Shown piece after piece: positions 18,910 to 56,633 of a stretch of DNA of 57,390 bases. Position 1 is the first letter of the stretch; each line of letters opens with the position of its first letter. The DNA is from Patescibacteria group bacterium. Its GTDB lineage: Bacteria; Patescibacteriota; Minisyncoccia; UBA6257; UBA9933. The position numbers and the translations under genes were made by a program. A model generated the notes under the pieces. That model was not told the DNA's origin. It did not search any database and worked only from the letters and a program-made list of their open reading frames with translations. Location: NCBI GenBank assembly GCA_038063335.1, contig JBBTVF010000045.1, forward strand, positions 1-57,390, read 5' to 3'.

Positions 18910-18914
18910 AACTT

Positions 18915-19412
18915 TTAAACTTTTAATTTTTTCAACGCTTCTATCGTCGCCATCGCATTTGTTAACTTATTTTTAGTGCCGCCAAGGCATTTTGCGGTTG
19001 CGTCCCTGACTCCGACCAAAAGAAGCACAGTCCTAACCGAACCTCCGGCTTTTAATCCGTGACCCTCCTTTGCCGGTTTTATTAAAACTTTTGCGGCGCT
19101 GAATTTAGCTTCAATCTCATGCGGTATTGTTTTGCCTTTTAATTTCAGCGCGATTAAATGTTTTTTGGCGTCAGTTTTGGCTTTATCAACGGCTTGCATG
19201 ACATCCATCCCCTTGGCAATTCCTATGCCAACACTGCCTTTTTCATTTCCGATAACCACCGTTGCTCTGAATTTAAAACGTTTTCCGCCAGCCATAACTC
19301 TGGTAACACGCCGCAAATCAATAACCTTCTCCTTAAATTCAGAAGGCTGTCTCTTTATATCTCGCGATACTCTTGAAAATCTTTTTTCAGTTGTTTGTCC
19401 TTGTTGATTCAT
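18915..19412 (-). CDS. rpsE: ribosomal protein S5
   Basis: RVTRVMAGGKRFKFRATVVIGN. Confidence 0.95.
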   Translation of the reverse strand: MNQQGQTTEKRFSRVSRDIKRQPSEFKEKVIDLRRVTRVMAGGKRFKFRATVVIGNEKGSVGIGIAKGMDVMQAVDKAKTDAKKHLIALKLKGKTIPHEIEAKFSAAKVLIKPAKEGHGLKAGGSVRTVLLLVGVRDATAKCLGGTKNKLTNAMATIEALKKLKV

Positions 19413-19757: not shown

Positions 19758-19905
19758 CCCTCACCCTTCAAAGATTTTATTATAAATTTTAATAAAATTT
19801 ATAATATATAATAATTGAAGTTTTTATTTATTGGTTTATTTATATTCTTTATTTTTATTATTAATCCCCGCCTTTCAAATTTTTTATCTTTGAAGGGTGA
19901 GGGAT
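19756..19905. mobile_element. F-family palindromic element F1 (putative MITE) at the rplF stop / rplR start
   Basis: ATCCCTCACCCTTCAAAGAT ... ATCTTTGAAGGGTGAGGGAT, 20/20 bp inverted termini. Near-identical to 32854-33003. Confidence 0.85.
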
Positions 19906-22665: not shown

Positions 22666-22807
22666 CCCTCACCCTTCAAAGATTGCTTGTAAATTTTATA
22701 AAAATTTACAAATTAAATCTTATGAATATTTAATTTATTTTATTTATATATAACATAAAAATATTTTATTTCCCCAAATTCTTCATTATCTTTGAAGGGT
22801 GAGGGAT
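22664..22807. mobile_element. F-family palindromic element F2 at the rplP stop / rpmC start
   Basis: Same 20-bp perfect termini. The interior resembles 24731-24875, including the hairpin CTTGTAAATTTT..AAATTTACAA. Confidence 0.85.
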
Positions 22808-24732: not shown

Positions 24733-24875
24733 CCCTCACCCTTCAAAGATTGCTTGTAAATTTTTATAAAATTTACAAGTTAAACCTTATGAAGATTAAA
24801 TTAATTTATTTTATATATAACATAAATATTCTACCTCCCCCAACTCTTCTTAATTATCTTTGAAGGGTGAGGGAT
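24731..24875. mobile_element. F-family palindromic element F3 at the rplB stop / rpsS start
   Basis: Same 20-bp perfect termini. Confidence 0.85.
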
Positions 24876-30481: not shown

Positions 30482-30832
30482 TTACACAAACTCAATTATC
30501 GCCATCTTGGCGGCATCATTCTTTCTGACTTTTGCCAATTTGATTATTCTCAAATATCCCCCTTTTCTTTCGGTATATCGCGGCGCGATTTGATAATACA
30601 ATTTTTGTCCCGCTTTATTGCTTAATCTTGATAAAATAATCCTTAAAGACGCCACGCTTTGTTTCTTGGCAAGCGTGACTAATTTTTCCGTTGCCGATTT
30701 AATTTCTTTAGCTTTCGCTTCCGTAGTTTCAATTTTTTCCTTAATGATTAAATTGGCGATTAAACTTTTTAAAAGAGCCCGGCGCTGACCCCTTGCTCTA
30801 TGAAATTTTCTTCCCTTTTTAAGATGCTTCAC
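30482..30832 (-). CDS. rplQ: ribosomal protein L17 (GTG start created at the element boundary)
   Basis: (M)KHLKKGRKFHRARGQRRALL matches the L17 N-terminus. The GTG uses the terminal G of element E3. Confidence 0.9.
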   Translation of the reverse strand: MKHLKKGRKFHRARGQRRALLKSLIANLIIKEKIETTEAKAKEIKSATEKLVTLAKKQSVASLRIILSRLSNKAGQKLYYQIAPRYTERKGGYLRIIKLAKVRKNDAAKMAIIEFV

Positions 30833-30952
30833 CCCCACACCATAACGAGTTTATATCTATTACAATATTATATTTAATATGATAATAAAATTTCACTCTT
30901 ATTTTTATACTATTATTAATTTATTCTCCCCACAACTCGTTTGGTGTGGGGG
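30832..30952. mobile_element. E-family palindromic element E3 (121 bp) between rpoA and rplQ
   Basis: CCCCCACACCATAACGAGTT ... AACTCGTTTGGTGTGGGGG termini, AT-rich interior, direct TTCA/TTCA flanks. Confidence 0.85.
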
Positions 30953-30956
30953 TTCA

Positions 30957-31742
30957 TTATTTTTTCTTTTTCTTTTTTTCTTCTTTTTCCTTGACCGCTT
31001 TTTTTCCCTTTTTTCCGGCAAATAAAGTTTTCTCCGATTCAATCTCTTTAACTTCAATCAGCACCACTTTTTCAATATGGTCTTTTAAAATATTCGCGGA
31101 TTTATGAAGCGCTTTTGACGGCGTTATACTTCCATCCGTCTTAATAAAAATTCTTAACCTGTTATAATCCGTTCTTTCTCCAACGCGCATATTCTCAACG
31201 ACAAAATTCACGCTGATAATCGGACTAAAAAACGAATCAATGGCAATCACGCCCACCGGCAATTTATCGGCTTTTCTATTCTCTGCCGCCATATACCCCA
31301 ATCCTTTTTCAACGGTTAATTCCATTTCAATTTCGGCATTTTTTCCGGTTAATGAAAGAATATGAGCGGAAGAACTGACTATTTCAACTTCTGGATTAAC
31401 TTCAATGTCTCGGGCTAAAACTTTTTTCTCCCCTTTCGCCTTTAAAGAAAGAACTTGTGGTTCATCGGAATAAAGCTTAAAGCGAATTTTTTTAAGATTT
31501 AAAATAATTTCTACAATATCCTCTTTTACGCCCGCTATGGTTGAAAATTCATGTTTTACGCCCTTAATTTTTATCTGAGTGATGGCGGCGCCGGGCAAAG
31601 AAGACAAAAGCGCTCTTCGCAAAGCATTGCCCAAAGTGAGGCCGTAACCGGCATAAAGCCCCTCAACTTCAAAAACTCCCTCAACGTTTGTTTCCGAAAC
31701 TTTTTTAATTTTTACTGTTTCGCTAAGATATTGGTATTGCAT
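30957..31742 (-). CDS. rpoA: RNA polymerase alpha subunit, N-terminal domain only plus a Lys-rich tail
   Basis: LGNALRRALLSSLPGAAI and the rest of the alpha-NTD. The protein ends at 261 aa in ...KEKEEKKKKKK. Confidence 0.92.
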   Translation of the reverse strand: MQYQYLSETVKIKKVSETNVEGVFEVEGLYAGYGLTLGNALRRALLSSLPGAAITQIKIKGVKHEFSTIAGVKEDIVEIILNLKKIRFKLYSDEPQVLSLKAKGEKKVLARDIEVNPEVEIVSSSAHILSLTGKNAEIEMELTVEKGLGYMAAENRKADKLPVGVIAIDSFFSPIISVNFVVENMRVGERTDYNRLRIFIKTDGSITPSKALHKSANILKDHIEKVVLIEVKEIESEKTLFAGKKGKKAVKEKEEKKKKKK

Positions 31743-32371: not shown

Positions 32372-32390
32372 AACTTTTAAACTTTTTATA

Positions 32391-32855: not shown

Positions 32856-33003
32856 CCCTCACCCTTCAAAGATTTTATTATAAATTTTAATAAAATTTAT
32901 AATATAGAATAATTGAAGTTTTTATTTATTGGTTTATTTATATTCTTTATTTTTATTATTTATCCCTGCCTTCCAGATTTTTTATCTTTGAAGGGTGAGG
33001 GAT
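32854..33003. mobile_element. F-family palindromic element F4 at the rpsM stop / rpsK start
   Basis: Same 20-bp perfect termini. Differs from 19756-19905 at only ~6 positions. Confidence 0.85.
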
Positions 33004-33386: not shown

Positions 33387-33413
33387 AACTTTAAAACTTT
33401 TAAACTTTTTAAT

Positions 33414-38168: not shown

Positions 38169-38255
38169 AATAGTATTCGCTAATAATGCGAATTTTTAAC
38201 AAATAATGCTAATTTATTCGCGTTATTAAATTTATATTCGCGTTATTCGCGATTA
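38169..38255. repeat. ATTCGC-rich spacer element (H family, copy 1) between fpg and pyrG
   Basis: AATAGTATTCGC...AATAATGCTAATTTATTCGCGTTATT...ATTCGCGTTATTCGCGATTA. Its end supplies the last codons and stop of fpg. Confidence 0.7.
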
Positions 38256-39223
38256 CTCTGGCATTTGGGACAATAATGTGCCGACCTTCCTCCTATTCTA
38301 ATTCTTTTTATCATACTCCCGCAACGTGGACAAGGTTCGCCTTCATGCTGATAAACCCCCACACCATAACGAGAATAATTATTTTTTTGCATAGAAAACA
38401 CCGATTCTCGTTTGGTGTGGGGGTAAACTTTTAACATTTTAGCATACCCGCCCAATTTTCCAAAAGCGTCGCGAAAATCGCTTATTGAAGTTCCGCGCAA
38501 TTTCACGGCCTTTTCTAAAATTTCTTTCATCGCCTTGTATAAGTTTTTAAGTTCGTAAGTTTTAAGTTTATAAGTTTGCCTTAGCGGATTAATTTTCGCC
38601 TGCCATAAAATCTCATCGGAATAAATATTGCCAATACCAGCGATTATTTCTTGGTCCATTAAAACCTGCTTAATCTTGCGTTTTTGCGACTTTATTAACT
38701 TTACAAACTTTATAACATTAAAACTTTTGTCCAGCGGCTCCGGTCCCAAATTTTTTAATTCCGGTAAATTTTCAATTTCATCTTTTGGTCCGAATAAAAT
38801 CTTGGCGAATTTTCGCAAATCCGAAAGTCCAACTTGCCAGCCATTGTCTAAATAAAGAATAAAATGAATATAATTATTAACTTTTTCTTCTAACGCGCCC
38901 TTGATTAAACTTCTCACTATTACTTTTTGTTTATCCTGAGCTTTGCCGAAGGACCATTTTCCATACAGCAAATGCCCTGTCATTTTTTGGTGAATTAATA
39001 ATAAAAAATTGTTAGTTAAATAAATAAGTATATTTTTCCCGCGGCGTTTTACGTCAATAATCTTCAATCCCTTAATTTGCTTTTCCAATTTATTGGGTTT
39101 TGTCCGCCAGCTGACGGATTTTATAAGTTTCGGCGCATTAAACCAAACGCCGACAATTTTTCTGCCGACGATTTTTTTCTTTAAGTCGTTTACAATTGTC
39201 TCAACTTCTGGCAACTCCGGCAT
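38243..39223 (-). CDS. mutM: formamidopyrimidine-DNA glycosylase (carries a 24-codon element-derived insert)
   Basis: MPELPEVE N-terminus (start chosen at 39223), H2TH region, C-terminal zinc finger CPRCG...CPKC. Confidence 0.9.
   Translation of the reverse strand: MPELPEVETIVNDLKKKIVGRKIVGVWFNAPKLIKSVSWRTKPNKLEKQIKGLKIIDVKRRGKNILIYLTNNFLLLIHQKMTGHLLYGKWSFGKAQDKQKVIVRSLIKGALEEKVNNYIHFILYLDNGWQVGLSDLRKFAKILFGPKDEIENLPELKNLGPEPLDKSFNVIKFVKLIKSQKRKIKQVLMDQEIIAGIGNIYSDEILWQAKINPLRQTYKLKTYELKNLYKAMKEILEKAVKLRGTSISDFRDAFGKLGGYAKMLKVYPHTKRESVFSMQKNNYSRYGVGVYQHEGEPCPRCGSMIKRIRIGGRSAHYCPKCQSNRE
38356..38423. mobile_element. E-family palindromic element E4 (68 bp) inside fpg, in frame
   Basis: CCCCCACACCATAACGAGAA ... 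TTCTCGTTTGGTGTGGGGG with direct TAAA/TAAA flanks. 68+4 = 72 nt = 24 codons. Confidence 0.85.
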
Positions 39224-39224
39224 A

Positions 39225-40928
39225 TTATTCAACCGCCACTCTTAAAACCTCTTCCAAAGTGGTTTGTCCTGATTCTATCTTTTCTAACCCGTCTTCAAAC
39301 ATAAGTCTCATTCCCTCCTGTCGCGCCTTATTTTTAATGATGTTCGTCCCTGATTTGGCGATAATCAATTCACGAATAGCGTCAGAAACATAAAGAATTT
39401 CAAAAAGCCCTATTTGTCCGCGATAACCGGAAAATCCGCAAACGCCGCATCCTTCGCCCTGGTAAATCATTTCCGGCATTTTCGCTTTAATATCCATACT
39501 TTTTAGATGACTTTGTAAAACGTTTAATAATTCTTTACCGGGCTTTATTGAATGAACGCACGCAGTGCAAATTTTACGCACCAAACGCTGAGCAATAACC
39601 ACGTTAAGCGTTGAAGAAATTAAAAACGGCTGTACGTTTAAATCAAGAAGTCGGGGAATCGCGGTTGGCGCATCATTGGTATGAAGAGTTGAAAGTAAAC
39701 GATGTCCGGTTAAAGAAGCGTTTACCGCAATATCTGCCGTTTCTCCGTCGCGGATTTCACCAACCATAATAATATCCGGATTCTGACGCACAAACGAACG
39801 TAATCCCGAAGAGAAAGTAAGCCCAGCCTTGACATTGACCTGCGTTTGATTCACTCCCGGAATATCATATTCTATCGGGTCTTCAACGGAAACAATATTA
39901 ACTTTTGGCGTATTAAGAATCCCCAAAATGGCGTAAAGCGTGGTTGTTTTTCCGGAGCCGGTCGGGCCGGTCACTAAAATCATTCCGCGCGGTTTTTTAA
40001 TAGCCATTTCTATTTTAGGCAATTCGCTTTGCGAAAAACCAAGTTCGTAAAGTGTAAGCGGTCGCAAAGAACCTTTTAATAAACGCATTTCCCCTTTTTC
40101 GCCGTGAAAAGTCGGAATTACCGAAACGCGAACATCGACAAATTGGTCTTCAATCGGAAATCTAAAACGGCCATCTTGCGGTGCGTTGTGAATGTCTATC
40201 TGCAAATTCGACAAAACTTTTATCCTCGCTATTAAAATCGGCGCGATAACCGGCGGCAAATTCAAAATTTCCTGCAAAATCCCGTCTATGCGATAACGCA
40301 CTATCAATTTATTTTCAAAAGTTTCGAAATGAATATCAGACGCTCCCGAAGTGGCGGCGTGCTCTATAATTGTATTGACGATATTCACAATCGGCACCGC
40401 TTCTATCATTTTTGACATATCCAGCGCTCCGGCAATGCCTATGGATTCTTTAAGATTTTCTTCAATAACTTTTCCGAATTCTTCGTTAATTTTCTTTTTA
40501 TATTGTCTCAAGCCGAATTTTAAATCGGATTGCGACATTAAGTAAATGTCCAACCAGACGTTAAGCAAAGTCCGAAGATAATTAATGGTATAAAAATCTT
40601 CCGGGTCAAGCATCGCCAATTTTCCGCGTTTTTCTTTCGGATTAAATTCAAAAAGAATCACGCCGCGGCTTTTAGCAAAAGCTTCGGGAATTAATTTTAA
40701 AACGTCTTGAGAAATATTAACCGTGGAAAGATTAATTTGCGAAACATTAAAAAATTTGGCAATGCTTCCGGCAAGATATTTTTCATCAATAAATCCCTTG
40801 CCAATAAGAATATCCAAAACCAAACGATTACTACGAACCGCTTCTTCTTCGGCCGCCTGATAATCATGTTCGCTCGCCAATCCGGTAGATTCAACTATTT
40901 TTTTGATGTCCTCGGATAATAAATGCAT
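39225..40928 (-). CDS. pilB: type IV pilus / type II secretion assembly ATPase (PilB/GspE family)
   Basis: Walker A GPTGSGKTTT, VGEIRD, tetra-Cys CTAC...CGVCGFSGY. Confidence 0.9.
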   Translation of the reverse strand: MHLLSEDIKKIVESTGLASEHDYQAAEEEAVRSNRLVLDILIGKGFIDEKYLAGSIAKFFNVSQINLSTVNISQDVLKLIPEAFAKSRGVILFEFNPKEKRGKLAMLDPEDFYTINYLRTLLNVWLDIYLMSQSDLKFGLRQYKKKINEEFGKVIEENLKESIGIAGALDMSKMIEAVPIVNIVNTIIEHAATSGASDIHFETFENKLIVRYRIDGILQEILNLPPVIAPILIARIKVLSNLQIDIHNAPQDGRFRFPIEDQFVDVRVSVIPTFHGEKGEMRLLKGSLRPLTLYELGFSQSELPKIEMAIKKPRGMILVTGPTGSGKTTTLYAILGILNTPKVNIVSVEDPIEYDIPGVNQTQVNVKAGLTFSSGLRSFVRQNPDIIMVGEIRDGETADIAVNASLTGHRLLSTLHTNDAPTAIPRLLDLNVQPFLISSTLNVVIAQRLVRKICTACVHSIKPGKELLNVLQSHLKSMDIKAKMPEMIYQGEGCGVCGFSGYRGQIGLFEILYVSDAIRELIIAKSGTNIIKNKARQEGMRLMFEDGLEKIESGQTTLEEVLRVAVE

Positions 40929-44839: not shown

Positions 44840-44977
44840 CCCTCACCTTTCGATGATTTTATTTATTTTTATATAAAAATAAATATTAATCAATCGAATT
44901 ATGTTAATTTATTTATATTTCTCATCCCATGTCCTCCAATTATAATTTTTAAAAATTATCCTCGAAGGGTGAGGGAT
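44838..44977. mobile_element. F-family element F5 (divergent) upstream of the ftsZ start
   Basis: ATCCCTCACCTTTCGATGAT ... ATCCTCGAAGGGTGAGGGAT (18/20 pairable). The interior is unrelated and holds two perfect AT palindromes. Confidence 0.75.
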
Positions 44978-54817: not shown

Positions 54818-54842
54818 TTTAAACTTTGAAACTTTTAAACTT

Positions 54843-55963: not shown

Positions 55964-56071
55964 CCCCCACACCAATTGGTCGGGATGCCGAGAATCGAAC
56001 TCGGGCAGCATGCACCCCATGCATGCATACTACCATTATATTACATCCCGTTTTGTATATTGGTGTGGGGG
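55964..56071. mobile_element. E-family element E5 (108 bp) carrying a complete tRNA-Pro
   Basis: CCCCCACACCAAT ... ATTGGTGTGGGGG termini enclose the tRNA at 55977-56050. Confidence 0.7.
55977..56050 (-). tRNA. tRNA-Pro (GGG), CCA encoded
   Basis: Cloverleaf: acceptor CGGGATG/CATCCCG, anticodon loop ATGGGGT, T-arm CCGAG-TTCGATT-CTCGG, then ACCA. Confidence 0.88.
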
Positions 56072-56126
56072 CGTGCCCGGGCCACACGCACCCCATGCGC
56101 GCACACTGCCATTATGCTACAGCCCG
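56072..56126 (-). pseudogene. 5' two-thirds of a second tRNA-Pro (GGG), truncated in the T-arm by element E5
   Basis: CGGGCTG-TA-GCAT-AATGGCA-GTGT-G-CGCGC-ATGGGGT-GCGTG-TGGC-CCGGG, then the element. A decayed 3' remnant (TGAAATT-CCCGA-CGACCCG-A) lies at 55942-55963. Confidence 0.6.
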
Positions 56127-56308
56127 CGCTTTGCTTGCGTTTTAATGCATTTCGTGCAAGCTAAAACACGCCCCGCCCCGGCGGGGTTCTTGGTAAATTG
56201 AAGATTTGGGTATTTTCTTTTTTTGGAAGTCGGATTGTAATTACCGCGAAGTTTTTTTCTCGTTCCGCGAATAATTGAACCCTTCTCGCAAATTTTACAT
56301 TGTCTCAT
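56117..56308 (-). CDS. rpmB: ribosomal protein L28 (zinc form)
   Basis: MRQCKICEKG...PNLQ...CTKCIK. Confidence 0.8.
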   Translation of the reverse strand: MRQCKICEKGSIIRGTRKKLRGNYNPTSKKRKYPNLQFTKNPAGAGRVLACTKCIKTQAKRGL

Positions 56309-56360: not shown

Positions 56361-56633
56361 TCAGCACCCCGCCAAAGGCGTGGGTAGAATTTTATTATTT
56401 AATAATTTTTTAAACGCTTCGCCGGATTTATAACTTTTAATTTGTTTTTCTCTTTTTCTTGCTTCTTCTAATATCTTATATTCTTCCACTAAAATAATTT
56501 CAAGGGGTATATGCCTTATTAATGATTTAGTTTTACCGCTATTATGTTCTTTTAATCTTCTTTGAAGATTATCCGTATAGCCAATATAATGCCTACTTGT
56601 TTTTTTAGATTTTAGAATATAAACAAAATACAT
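56361..56633 (-). CDS. small GIY-YIG domain protein
   Basis: MYFVYILKS..RHYIGYTDNLQRRLKEHN. Start chosen at the internal Met. Confidence 0.8.
   Translation of the reverse strand: MYFVYILKSKKTSRHYIGYTDNLQRRLKEHNSGKTKSLIRHIPLEIILVEEYKILEEARKREKQIKSYKSGEAFKKLLNNKILPTPLAGC

Follow-up and report, generated by a model that had tools for sequence, protein, structure and literature searches.

The window analysed here is a stretch of 57,390 nucleotides (nt) from a Patescibacteria group bacterium (positions 1 to 57,390 of contig JBBTVF010000045.1, assembly GCA_038063335.1). On its minus strand rpoA, encoding the RNA polymerase alpha subunit (30957-31742, stop TAA at 30957-30959; orthologues are Pfam-annotated), is followed by rplQ, encoding ribosomal protein L17 (30482-30832, 116 codons when read from a GTG at the junction), and between the two genes lies a non-coding palindromic element of 121 bp (30832-30952, minus strand). 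Read on the mRNA strand, the element runs CCCCCACACCAAACGAG...CTCGTTATGGTGTGGGGG. Its terminal inverted repeats (TIRs) have arm lengths of 19 and 20 nt, the mRNA 5' arm being CCCCCACACCAAACGAGTT (30934-30952) and the mRNA 3' arm AACTCGTTATGGTGTGGGGG (30832-30851), which contains a conserved 1-nt bulge; on the plus strand the arms read CCCCCACACCATAACGAGTT (30832-30851) and AACTCGTTTGGTGTGGGGG (30934-30952) and are complementary apart from one bulged T. A 4-bp direct repeat, TGAA on the mRNA and TTCA on the plus strand, flanks the element at 30953-30956 (upstream copy) and 30828-30831 (downstream copy), and the coding strand thus reads AAAAAATAA TGAA, element, TGAAGCATCTT, i.e. a second TGAA followed by GCATCTT. 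Together with base 30957, the upstream copy retains the old ATG (30955-30957), which overlaps the rpoA stop codon as the L17 ATG formerly did. A short leftover open reading frame (ORF) of 13 codons starts there (30916-30957, minus strand; ATG AAC CCC CAC ACC ... TAA, encoding MNPHTKRVVGRIN*). The element ends in G and the downstream duplication begins with TG, which results in a GTG (30830-30832) in frame at the position of the ancestral first codon, while the AA of the same duplication opens codon 2 (AAG, Lys). Another in-frame GTG is found within the repeat (30836-30838) and would yield MGV-KHLKK and a 118-aa L17. Counted from the last base of the 3' arm, GTG occurs at -6 and at -8 and ATG at -11.

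A first-pass annotation of this DNA had read the segment as a transposed element that split the L17 start codon and had predicted an uninterrupted junction in close relatives, naming beforehand a different junction there as the outcome that would speak against it. All of its statements on the sequence itself (coordinates of the element, termini and TTCA flanks) were reproduced, and the predicted junction, ...AATAATGAAGCATCTT, was found in close relatives whose rplQ DNA is 93-95% identical to that of the window. Three empty lineages were recovered: L005-007 (GCA_964642155.1), L314-316 (Hainich well H41) and L317-319, where L numbers are labels of fetched contigs or loci. Their sites read ...GAAAAAATAATGAAGCATCTTAAAAAAGG, i.e. 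...GAAA(A)ATAATGAAGCATCTTAAAAAAGG, with the rpoA TAA overlapping the ATG by one base. As these sites hold a single TGAA, the proposed transposition with a 4-bp target duplication is borne out. The split ATG, with its A left upstream, and the rebuilding of a start from G and TG at the canonical L17 N-terminus are likewise supported by the empty sites and by the 116-aa L17 proteins of relatives, which begin M(K/R)HLK(K/S)GRKF. By its L17 homologues the organism is a Candidatus Wolfebacteria-like member of the Patescibacteria. One of the empty lineages shares an assembly from a single aquifer sample (ERZ1292625) with the occupied allele. More distant relatives (78-82% rplQ DNA identity) are also free of the element and show either AAAAAATGAGGCAT or a plain 18-nt spacer, and since this is so, the element-free state is ancestral and the element an insertion.

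The occupied allele is not confined to one assembly. For the Hainich wells H41, H51 and H52, assemblies independent of one another carry an identical 121-bp copy at this position, and the identical insertion is present in independent ENA and Logan assemblies. In a second occupied lineage, which includes a Crystal Geyser genome and is represented in both ENA and NCBI assemblies, a 158-nt version occupies the same site, with ca. 80% interior identity to the 121-bp element and an additional 37-nt piece resembling a mini-element. Within the 158-nt elements (L308-L313, L320) this internal piece looks like a degenerate mini-copy (CTCACACCAAAC..TGGTGTAGGGG) and is bracketed by ACGAGTT repeats. Between the two occupied lineages L17 shows ca. 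27 nt differences and only 6 aa differences, and it is still under purifying selection in insertion-bearing lineages. One contig, L001 (ENA Hain_H41, coverage 3), has a window-like rpoA end, element (121/121) and first 150 nt of rplQ, while its remainder is 149-150/150 identical to the empty-site strain L314. In view of this mosaic structure, window-like at the 5' side and L314-like at the 3' side, an independent insertion in L001 was rejected; the contig is either a recombinant or a chimeric low-coverage one.

On the mRNA strand, the element is predicted to fold into one long hairpin (-40.9 kcal/mol, z = -6.5). Based on 100 shuffles, 0 matches to the 19-nt arm are expected, and the 11-nt core of the repeat occurs 9 times in the window compared with 0.21 expected. 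No intrinsic terminator was detected, as the hairpin is followed by GAAGCAUCUU without a U-tract, and no terminator-like site exists on the coding strand; read-through transcription is expected because no U-tract follows the stem. A sigma-70-like match (GTGAAA-18-TATAAT, 10/12) lies inside the element at 30867-30896 on the minus strand and is directed towards rplQ. A promoter inside the element was nevertheless discarded, since such matches do not exceed the AT-rich background (7 found, 3.1±1.9 expected).

Species-representative genomes and JGI metagenomes were scanned for the repeat pattern and the arms paired, which yielded 104 distinct elements in low-GC Patescibacteria contigs from both sources. 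Only ca. 17-18 nt are conserved at each end, namely the 11-nt core CCCCCACACCA, an optional single base and AACGAG; the optional base, an extra base in one arm only, forms a conserved bulge in 80 of 103 elements. The interiors fall into size classes of 32, 68, 74, ca. 118-158 and 303 nt. A perfect 4-nt duplication flanks 62 of the 104 copies, compared with 0.6% expected per copy, with TGAA/TTCA (22), TAAA/TTTA (17) and TCAA/TTGA (12) making up the spectrum and 152 of 202 flanks fitting T-N-N-A. The two flanks co-vary and the 4-bp duplication is genuine. An alternative parse, in which the element is 1 base longer at each end and the duplication 2 bp, was rejected, as it predicts perfect 4-nt flank identity in ca. 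10% of copies whereas 60% was seen. Including the rplQ copy, the window contains five members. With its TIRs, a fixed-length duplication checked against an empty site, a small size with no ORF apart from the 13-codon remnant of the old start, and dispersed copies (5 in the window, 104 distinct elsewhere) that are polymorphic for presence and absence, the rplQ copy has all structural features of a MITE (miniature inverted-repeat transposable element) except a proven autonomous partner. The insertion with target duplication recognised by the first-pass annotation at the rplQ start is one case of what the family does habitually.

Some two dozen further start codons show the arrangement seen at rplQ, and about a quarter of copies are placed exactly on a start codon. 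Reading outward from every element end and counting ORFs of at least 60 codons, we found 54 long ORFs in the frame that uses the terminal G as codon position 1 and 13 in each of the other two frames (chi-square p = 7e-10). At each of the 16 perfect-duplication sites of the type A|TGAA a long ORF begins at G|TGAA, which places them at gene starts, compared with 0 of 3 G|TGAA sites, so that 16 of 19 perfect TGAA insertions are at starts; additional start-codon cases have imperfect flanks. Genes split in this way include those for L17, L24, L35 (twice), L29, SSB, topoisomerase I, PilC (twice), IspH, a Pol I 5'-exonuclease and epimerases, and start insertions in the L9 and SHMT genes were found via the protein-search route. 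In the ten ORFs tested, Pfam domains begin at residues 1-5. Leftover ORFs running from the old start at such insertions span 8-30 codons and begin (M/V)(N/S)PHT. A simple relay of overlapping stops and starts through the non-coding copies was considered but found no support, as the leftover ORF does not consistently end at the new start and element length is unconstrained modulo 3 in start-codon copies. Both element orientations are present among the non-coding copies. The same start can be occupied by members of different sizes in different genomes: 131 and 303 nt at rpmI/L35 (L062 and L161), 137 and 125 nt at the PilC start (L181 and L220), and 136 and 303 nt at a 700-aa gene (L133 and L194). 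This suggests repeated hits or swapping of interiors between copies. Four copies (L134 155-295, L162 1730-1832, L191 1600-1667 and L244 3129-3265) are flanked as A-TTCA/element/TGAA. Their upstream duplicate has turned into the downstream duplicate's reverse complement, so that the stem is longer by 4 bp and the old ATG is lost; in L162 (SSB) and L244 (L29) an AGGAG is located at normal distance from the destroyed ATG. We infer that these copies arose by quasipalindrome template-switch correction.

Short members are also found inside genes. Copy D of the window (38356-38423, minus strand, 68 nt) lies within fpg/mutM (ORF 38243-39232, minus strand), where the element and its TAAA duplication add up to 72 nt or 24 codons (PHTKRESVFSMQKNNYSRYGVGVY) in frame, which separate the H2TH domain from the zinc finger; the insert-free Fpg of relative L005 reads KIYRREGELCQRCG. 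About 19 further elements, nearly all 68-77 nt long, are open throughout within long ORFs and in every case the length plus 4 is divisible by 3. Their hosts include NifS/IscS, PGK, FolD, an aminoacyl-tRNA synthetase and a UvrA-like protein, and most of these copies encode xPHTKR...RYGVGV.

The 303-nt class differs from all others in having coding capacity. Its length is fixed despite 20-30% sequence divergence, and every copy contains an intact 85-codon ORF at nt 28-285. The encoded protein matches the Pfam GIY-YIG family PF01541 above the cutoff (E = 4.5e-15), and its nearest solved sequences are the UPF0213 proteins 1zg2 (BH0048) and 1ywl (EF2693). Among 27 homologues 26 residues are invariant, including Y5, Y16, R26, H30, N31, E62 and N64, of which we take the Tyr, Arg and Glu residues to be catalytic as in the GIY-YIG fold. 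An AlphaFold model of the protein is confident (pLDDT 95.8) and best matches UPF0213 (1zg2) and the Slx1 nuclease domain, both with template modelling (TM) scores of 0.60-0.64 and 24-35% identity, with I-TevI and UvrC behind. Domain match, invariant residues and model all place the protein in the GIY-YIG superfamily. Pairwise differences between 303-bp copies at codon positions 1, 2 and 3 are 16.2, 10.8 and 36.9, and by this pattern the ORF is under purifying selection. At least 319 clusters at 90% identity, nearly all exactly 85 aa long, are annotated as GIY-YIG nucleases in Parcubacteria/Patescibacteria, and the wider family of small GIY-YIG proteins has 585 representatives at E<=1e-10. Genes retrieved by protein search alone show the same repeats and ATGAA|..|TGAA flanks. 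Within the 85-aa clade (at least 61% identity) repeats are found on every complete copy; the left repeat is decayed in a 53%-identical homologue, and homologues of 41-48% identity have no repeats. In all complete coding copies examined that abut a gene start, the nuclease ORF is co-directional with the split host gene, its ATG lying 32 nt downstream of the old one and 17 nt separating its stop from the rebuilt GTG. One identical protein precedes three or more different host genes or contexts. In the metagenome-assembled genome CAYNVZ01 a 303-nt element occurs together with short non-coding copies. The window itself encodes a GIY-YIG paralogue of ca. 90 aa from its ATG (56361-56632, minus strand), which is 45% identical to the 303-bp nuclease, has no repeats and is located 300 nt from copy E, a tRNA-enclosing member of the family.

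How L17 is translated across the insertion depends on a start that is part of the hairpin. In folding calculations the mean probability of being unpaired around the GTG is 0.22 for the free mRNA and 0.49 when a ribosome footprint is placed on the rpoA stop. Under the latter condition the outer stem opens in the model and the inner hairpin stays, holding the stop and the new start together. L17 would still be translated from one of the two GTGs, with the hairpin likely hiding the GTG until its 5' arm is melted by a ribosome that finishes rpoA or translates the leftover ORF of 13 codons. The stem would also hold the rpoA stop next to the new start in space and so preserve the original stop/start coupling. 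We favour such preserved termination-reinitiation coupling, aided by looping out of the palindrome, as suggested by the modelled structures. The ribosome-binding role that had been implied for the G-tract could not be upheld: the tract abuts the start codon without spacing, and because of this contact a Shine-Dalgarno (SD) function is unlikely. Further, an SD-like motif precedes only 4 of 53 window genes, and all four instances are G-rich ends of a second element family. A recurrent motif, AAAGTTTAAAAGTT, is seen directly upstream of many ATGs in the window (e.g. 18910-18925, 32372-32390, 33387-33410 and 54818-54840).

In our assessment the 121-bp segment is very probably a non-coding MITE of a Patescibacteria-wide family of small TIR elements, whose 303-bp coding members carry the gene for the 85-aa GIY-YIG protein. 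At rplQ it inserted into the TGAA of the overlapping rpoA stop and rplQ start, TAATGAAG, duplicating TGAA and leaving the A of the old ATG upstream. Structured regulatory leaders are common in ribosomal-protein operons, and the hairpin might instead be taken for an ancestral rplQ leader lost by relatives, or for an assembly artefact. This is vanishingly improbable and already refuted by the empty sites and the copy number: the repeats recur at four further window sites and in ca. 100 unrelated contexts, in the outgroups (78-82% rplQ DNA identity) the two genes overlap tightly or are separated by a short plain spacer, the insertion is the same in independent assemblies with the 158-nt version in both ENA and NCBI data, and Rfam 15 gave no match at gathering score in the window and none at E<=1 in 30700-31100. 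As the sole protein in the family, the GIY-YIG nuclease is the candidate mobility enzyme. It may act in trans on the repeat hairpin or cruciform and on T-N-N-A targets, strongly favouring A|TGAA where genes begin; activity on a hairpin or cruciform is plausible in view of its Slx1-like fold. We therefore put forward, tentatively and with slightly less than even confidence, that these elements represent a new class of transposable element, in which the autonomous 303-bp form consists of two 17-18-nt repeats and an 85-aa Slx1/UPF0213-like nuclease and seeks A|TGAA starts, the rplQ copy being non-autonomous. If both element ends and the target were cut with a 4-nt stagger, in the manner of a restriction enzyme, duplication and precise excision could both result, co-directional insertion would place the element in the host transcript while the terminal G and duplicated TG keep the host gene alive, and the start codons of essential genes might serve as safe havens. 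The conventional counterpart, an ordinary MITE moved by an unseen DDE transposase with the GIY-YIG gene as mere cargo, appears rather unlikely to us. TIRs and a fixed-length duplication are typical of DDE transposition, cargo does occur in the form of tRNA genes inside window copy E and L020, and the CC... termini with a 4-bp duplication recall IS1380/piggyBac-type elements. However, no transposase-sized element with these repeats was found in ca. 340 loci, and the GIY-YIG ORF is fixed in length and position, is under purifying selection and has repeats on every complete copy of the clade with at least 61% identity. Screening all low-GC loci for units of 600-3500 bp with inverted repeats of at least 15 nt and a duplication returned none with family termini; no cognate transposase-bearing insertion sequence (IS) with family repeats was found, whereas the 303-bp GIY-YIG elements share them. 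Two repeat pairs were dismissed as chance matches, a 4.8 kb pair in L074 that lies inside Myxococcota ORFs and a 2.7 kb pair in L185 on a probably eukaryotic contig, most of which is taken up by a 717-aa ankyrin-repeat-like ORF. Several points count against our main reading. The window has no 303-bp coding copy, 40% of copies have no perfect duplication, and since the repeat itself served as the search pattern, its invariance is partly a matter of ascertainment. Judged by rplQ identity, the occupied lineages do not form an obviously monophyletic group, which calls for two gains or for precise loss at least twice. The putative start GTG of L17 is buried in the -40.9 kcal/mol stem. Finally, GIY-YIG enzymes are not known as transposases, and those characterised leave short 3' overhangs and are not known for a 4-nt stagger.

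The concentration of insertions on start codons points to targeting or preferential retention. The window offers 76 intergenic TGAA/TTCA sites, 22 intergenic ATGAA sites and 13 genes starting with ATGAA, and from tolerated sites a start-codon share of 15-37% would be expected, compared with 84-100% observed (p = 3e-11 and 1e-7), a test that is indicative only, as intergenic sites are not all neutral. An alternative is that insertion at TGAA-like sites is random and purifying selection in a gene-dense genome leaves the pattern. In its favour, 89% of the window is coding, regeneration of a start is among the few harmless outcomes of an insertion, and the in-frame intragenic copies show a similar filter. 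We nonetheless consider absence of targeting unlikely, given that intergenic TGAA and ATGAA sites are abundant and yet 16 of 19 TGAA and 16 of 16 ATGAA insertions are at starts, and that the same starts (L35, PilC) are occupied by different-sized members in different genomes. As to which codon initiates L17, the first-pass annotation was mistaken in taking the junction GTG for the only in-frame start, as the internal GTG (GTG GGG GTG AAG) is also available. Initiation at the latter is a real possibility, though we lean towards the junction, and would mean that the element donates the whole start codon and not one base. The internal GTG shares the reading frame of rplQ, in which the closest stop on its upstream side is four codons away. 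It is the L17 start in the ORF list of the window and that of 118-aa public members beginning MGVKHL or VGVKHL (ENA, NCBI, JGI), and in some other insertions, e.g. that in the RNase HII gene of L174, only an internal GTG could serve because the junction codon is GTA or GTT. On the other hand, the junction GTG gives exactly the ancestral N-terminus, and both the 116-aa NCBI gene call in GCA_002791355.1 and the JGI members written VKHLKK start there. The 90%-identity cluster around the window L17 holds 118-aa and 116-aa members alike, and as both candidate GTGs lie in one stem, structure does not discriminate between them.

The family shares features with several known systems. Like the bacterial MITEs Correia/NEMIS of Neisseria, ERIC and MITEAba12, its members are short, with an AT-rich interior, TIRs and a target duplication, and share with them many dispersed copies, presence/absence polymorphism and co-transcription with neighbours. 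Correia elements, however, have a TA duplication and 26-bp repeats, whereas here a 4-bp T-N-N-A duplication and a conserved repeat of 17-18 nt are found, and we do not assign the family to them. It further departs from known MITEs in that a quarter of copies sit on start codons and that the coding relative is a 303-bp GIY-YIG element and not a DDE IS. Rickettsia palindromic elements (RPEs), whose in-gene insertion behaviour is summarised in PMC10969869, are likewise palindromes lying in frame in unrelated housekeeping genes and translated as a conserved module (here xPHTKR...RYGVGV). The Fpg copy and the ca. 19 others behave in this RPE-like way, being inserted in frame and translated with the host protein; for the rplQ copy the comparison does not apply because 121+4 is not a multiple of 3. 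In contrast to RPEs (ca. 100-150 nt), the in-frame copies here come from another phylum and are 68-77 nt long, and the family has clear duplications, start-codon insertions and a coding member, a distinction drawn from these features. Palindromes of the REP/REPIN-RAYT type or derived from IS200/IS605 are set apart by the genuine 4-bp duplication, and the surroundings of the copies examined showed no HUH gene. Resemblance to piggyBac/IS1380-type elements, which also have a 4-bp T..A-type duplication, CC termini and empty sites resembling precise restoration, is a lead only, as no DDE transposase is present here.

On the nuclease side, free-standing GIY-YIG homing genes such as T4 seg, and I-TevI, are similar in placing a nuclease gene between co-oriented host genes and in their selfish behaviour, and the I-TevI catalytic domain is a weak fold match to the 85-aa protein. 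Unlike homing genes, the family has a protein of only 85 aa with no DNA-binding domain, inverted repeats with duplications, many loci and non-coding derivatives; a homing endonuclease gene has a single conserved site, whereas here an identical protein occurs in at least three unrelated contexts with target duplications. UPF0213/YhbQ-type proteins and Slx1 are nearest in sequence and fold, and UPF0213 has no assigned function or mobility. By analogy, Slx1 is informative in that it cuts branched and stem-loop DNA, shapes that the family repeats could form, although it needs Slx4 and has a RING domain. In rRNA genes of the Candidate Phyla Radiation (CPR), GIY-YIG ORFs have been described in non-intron, non-homing-like insertions, with many short ORF-less insertions alongside and no mention of inverted repeats or palindromes (PMC11270868). 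By this description, with the same phylum and small GIY-YIG ORFs, these rRNA-gene insertions may belong to the same family as the 121-bp element (compare mini-copies A and B near the 23S rRNA, below). In the searchable literature we found no prior description of Patescibacteria MITEs, of MITEs that rebuild start codons or of GIY-YIG genes with TIRs, the work on CPR rRNA-gene insertions coming closest, and in a 2024 review of prokaryotic MITEs neither 'start codon' nor Patescibacteria appears in the text.

The empty sites illustrate how a selfish element on the start of an essential ribosomal-protein gene can be tolerated by means of the element's last base and the duplicated target. With two dozen genes in many Patescibacteria affected and short relatives translated inside enzymes, this is a rule rather than an accident. 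Practical consequences concern gene calling, as N-termini are annotated inconsistently as MKHL, VKHL and MGVKHL, and protein annotation, where PHTKR...GVGV inserts of 24-26 aa have to be reckoned with. Should the GIY-YIG protein indeed move the elements, they would be the smallest autonomous transposon known and a categorically new family; a nuclease family would be newly tied to cut-and-paste transposition and part of UPF0213 would gain a function. Given the near-absence of Shine-Dalgarno sites, use of a start buried in a 20-bp stem would also bear on initiation and coupling in CPR bacteria.

The remaining window copies are of diverse structure. Copy A (634-665) is a mini-hairpin of 32 nt in degenerate form; it has a TTTA duplication and lies 35 nt upstream of the 23S rRNA 5' end. 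Copy B (1093-1124) is a 32-nt mini-hairpin of two fused repeats with a TCAA duplication, ca. 500 nt upstream of the same end. Copy E (55964-56071) is a repeat pair enclosing tRNA-Pro(GGG), flanked by TTCA and CGTG without a duplication, and adjoins a GC-rich truncated tRNA-Pro(GGG) pseudogene (56072-56130); excision of copy E does not rebuild a tRNA from this truncated gene. tRNA genes within repeat pairs were thus observed twice, in the window (55964-56130, tRNA-Pro GGG) and in L020 (7309-7423, anticodon loop TTCGCAT); in both, one flank is TTCA and the opposite flank has no copy matching it. A scan of viral contigs for the repeat returned 63 single unpaired matches, consistent with chance. 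The second palindromic family of the window (CCCTCACCCTTCAAAGAT...ATCTTTGAAGGGTGAGGG, ca. 140 nt) is located at 19758-19903, 22666-22805, 24733-24873, 32856-33001 and ca. 44840-44975, and its termini resemble those of the family of the 121-bp element. The four copies checked in detail (all but 22666-22805) read TAAT/element/ATG and were inserted into a TAATG overlap; stop and ATG both survive because the AT of this overlap is duplicated. A further small mobile element may be present in L237 (2896-3596), where a unit of 701 nt, unrelated to the family, has inverted repeats of 17 nt (CCCCGTTAGAAGTCC...) and a duplicated TATG.

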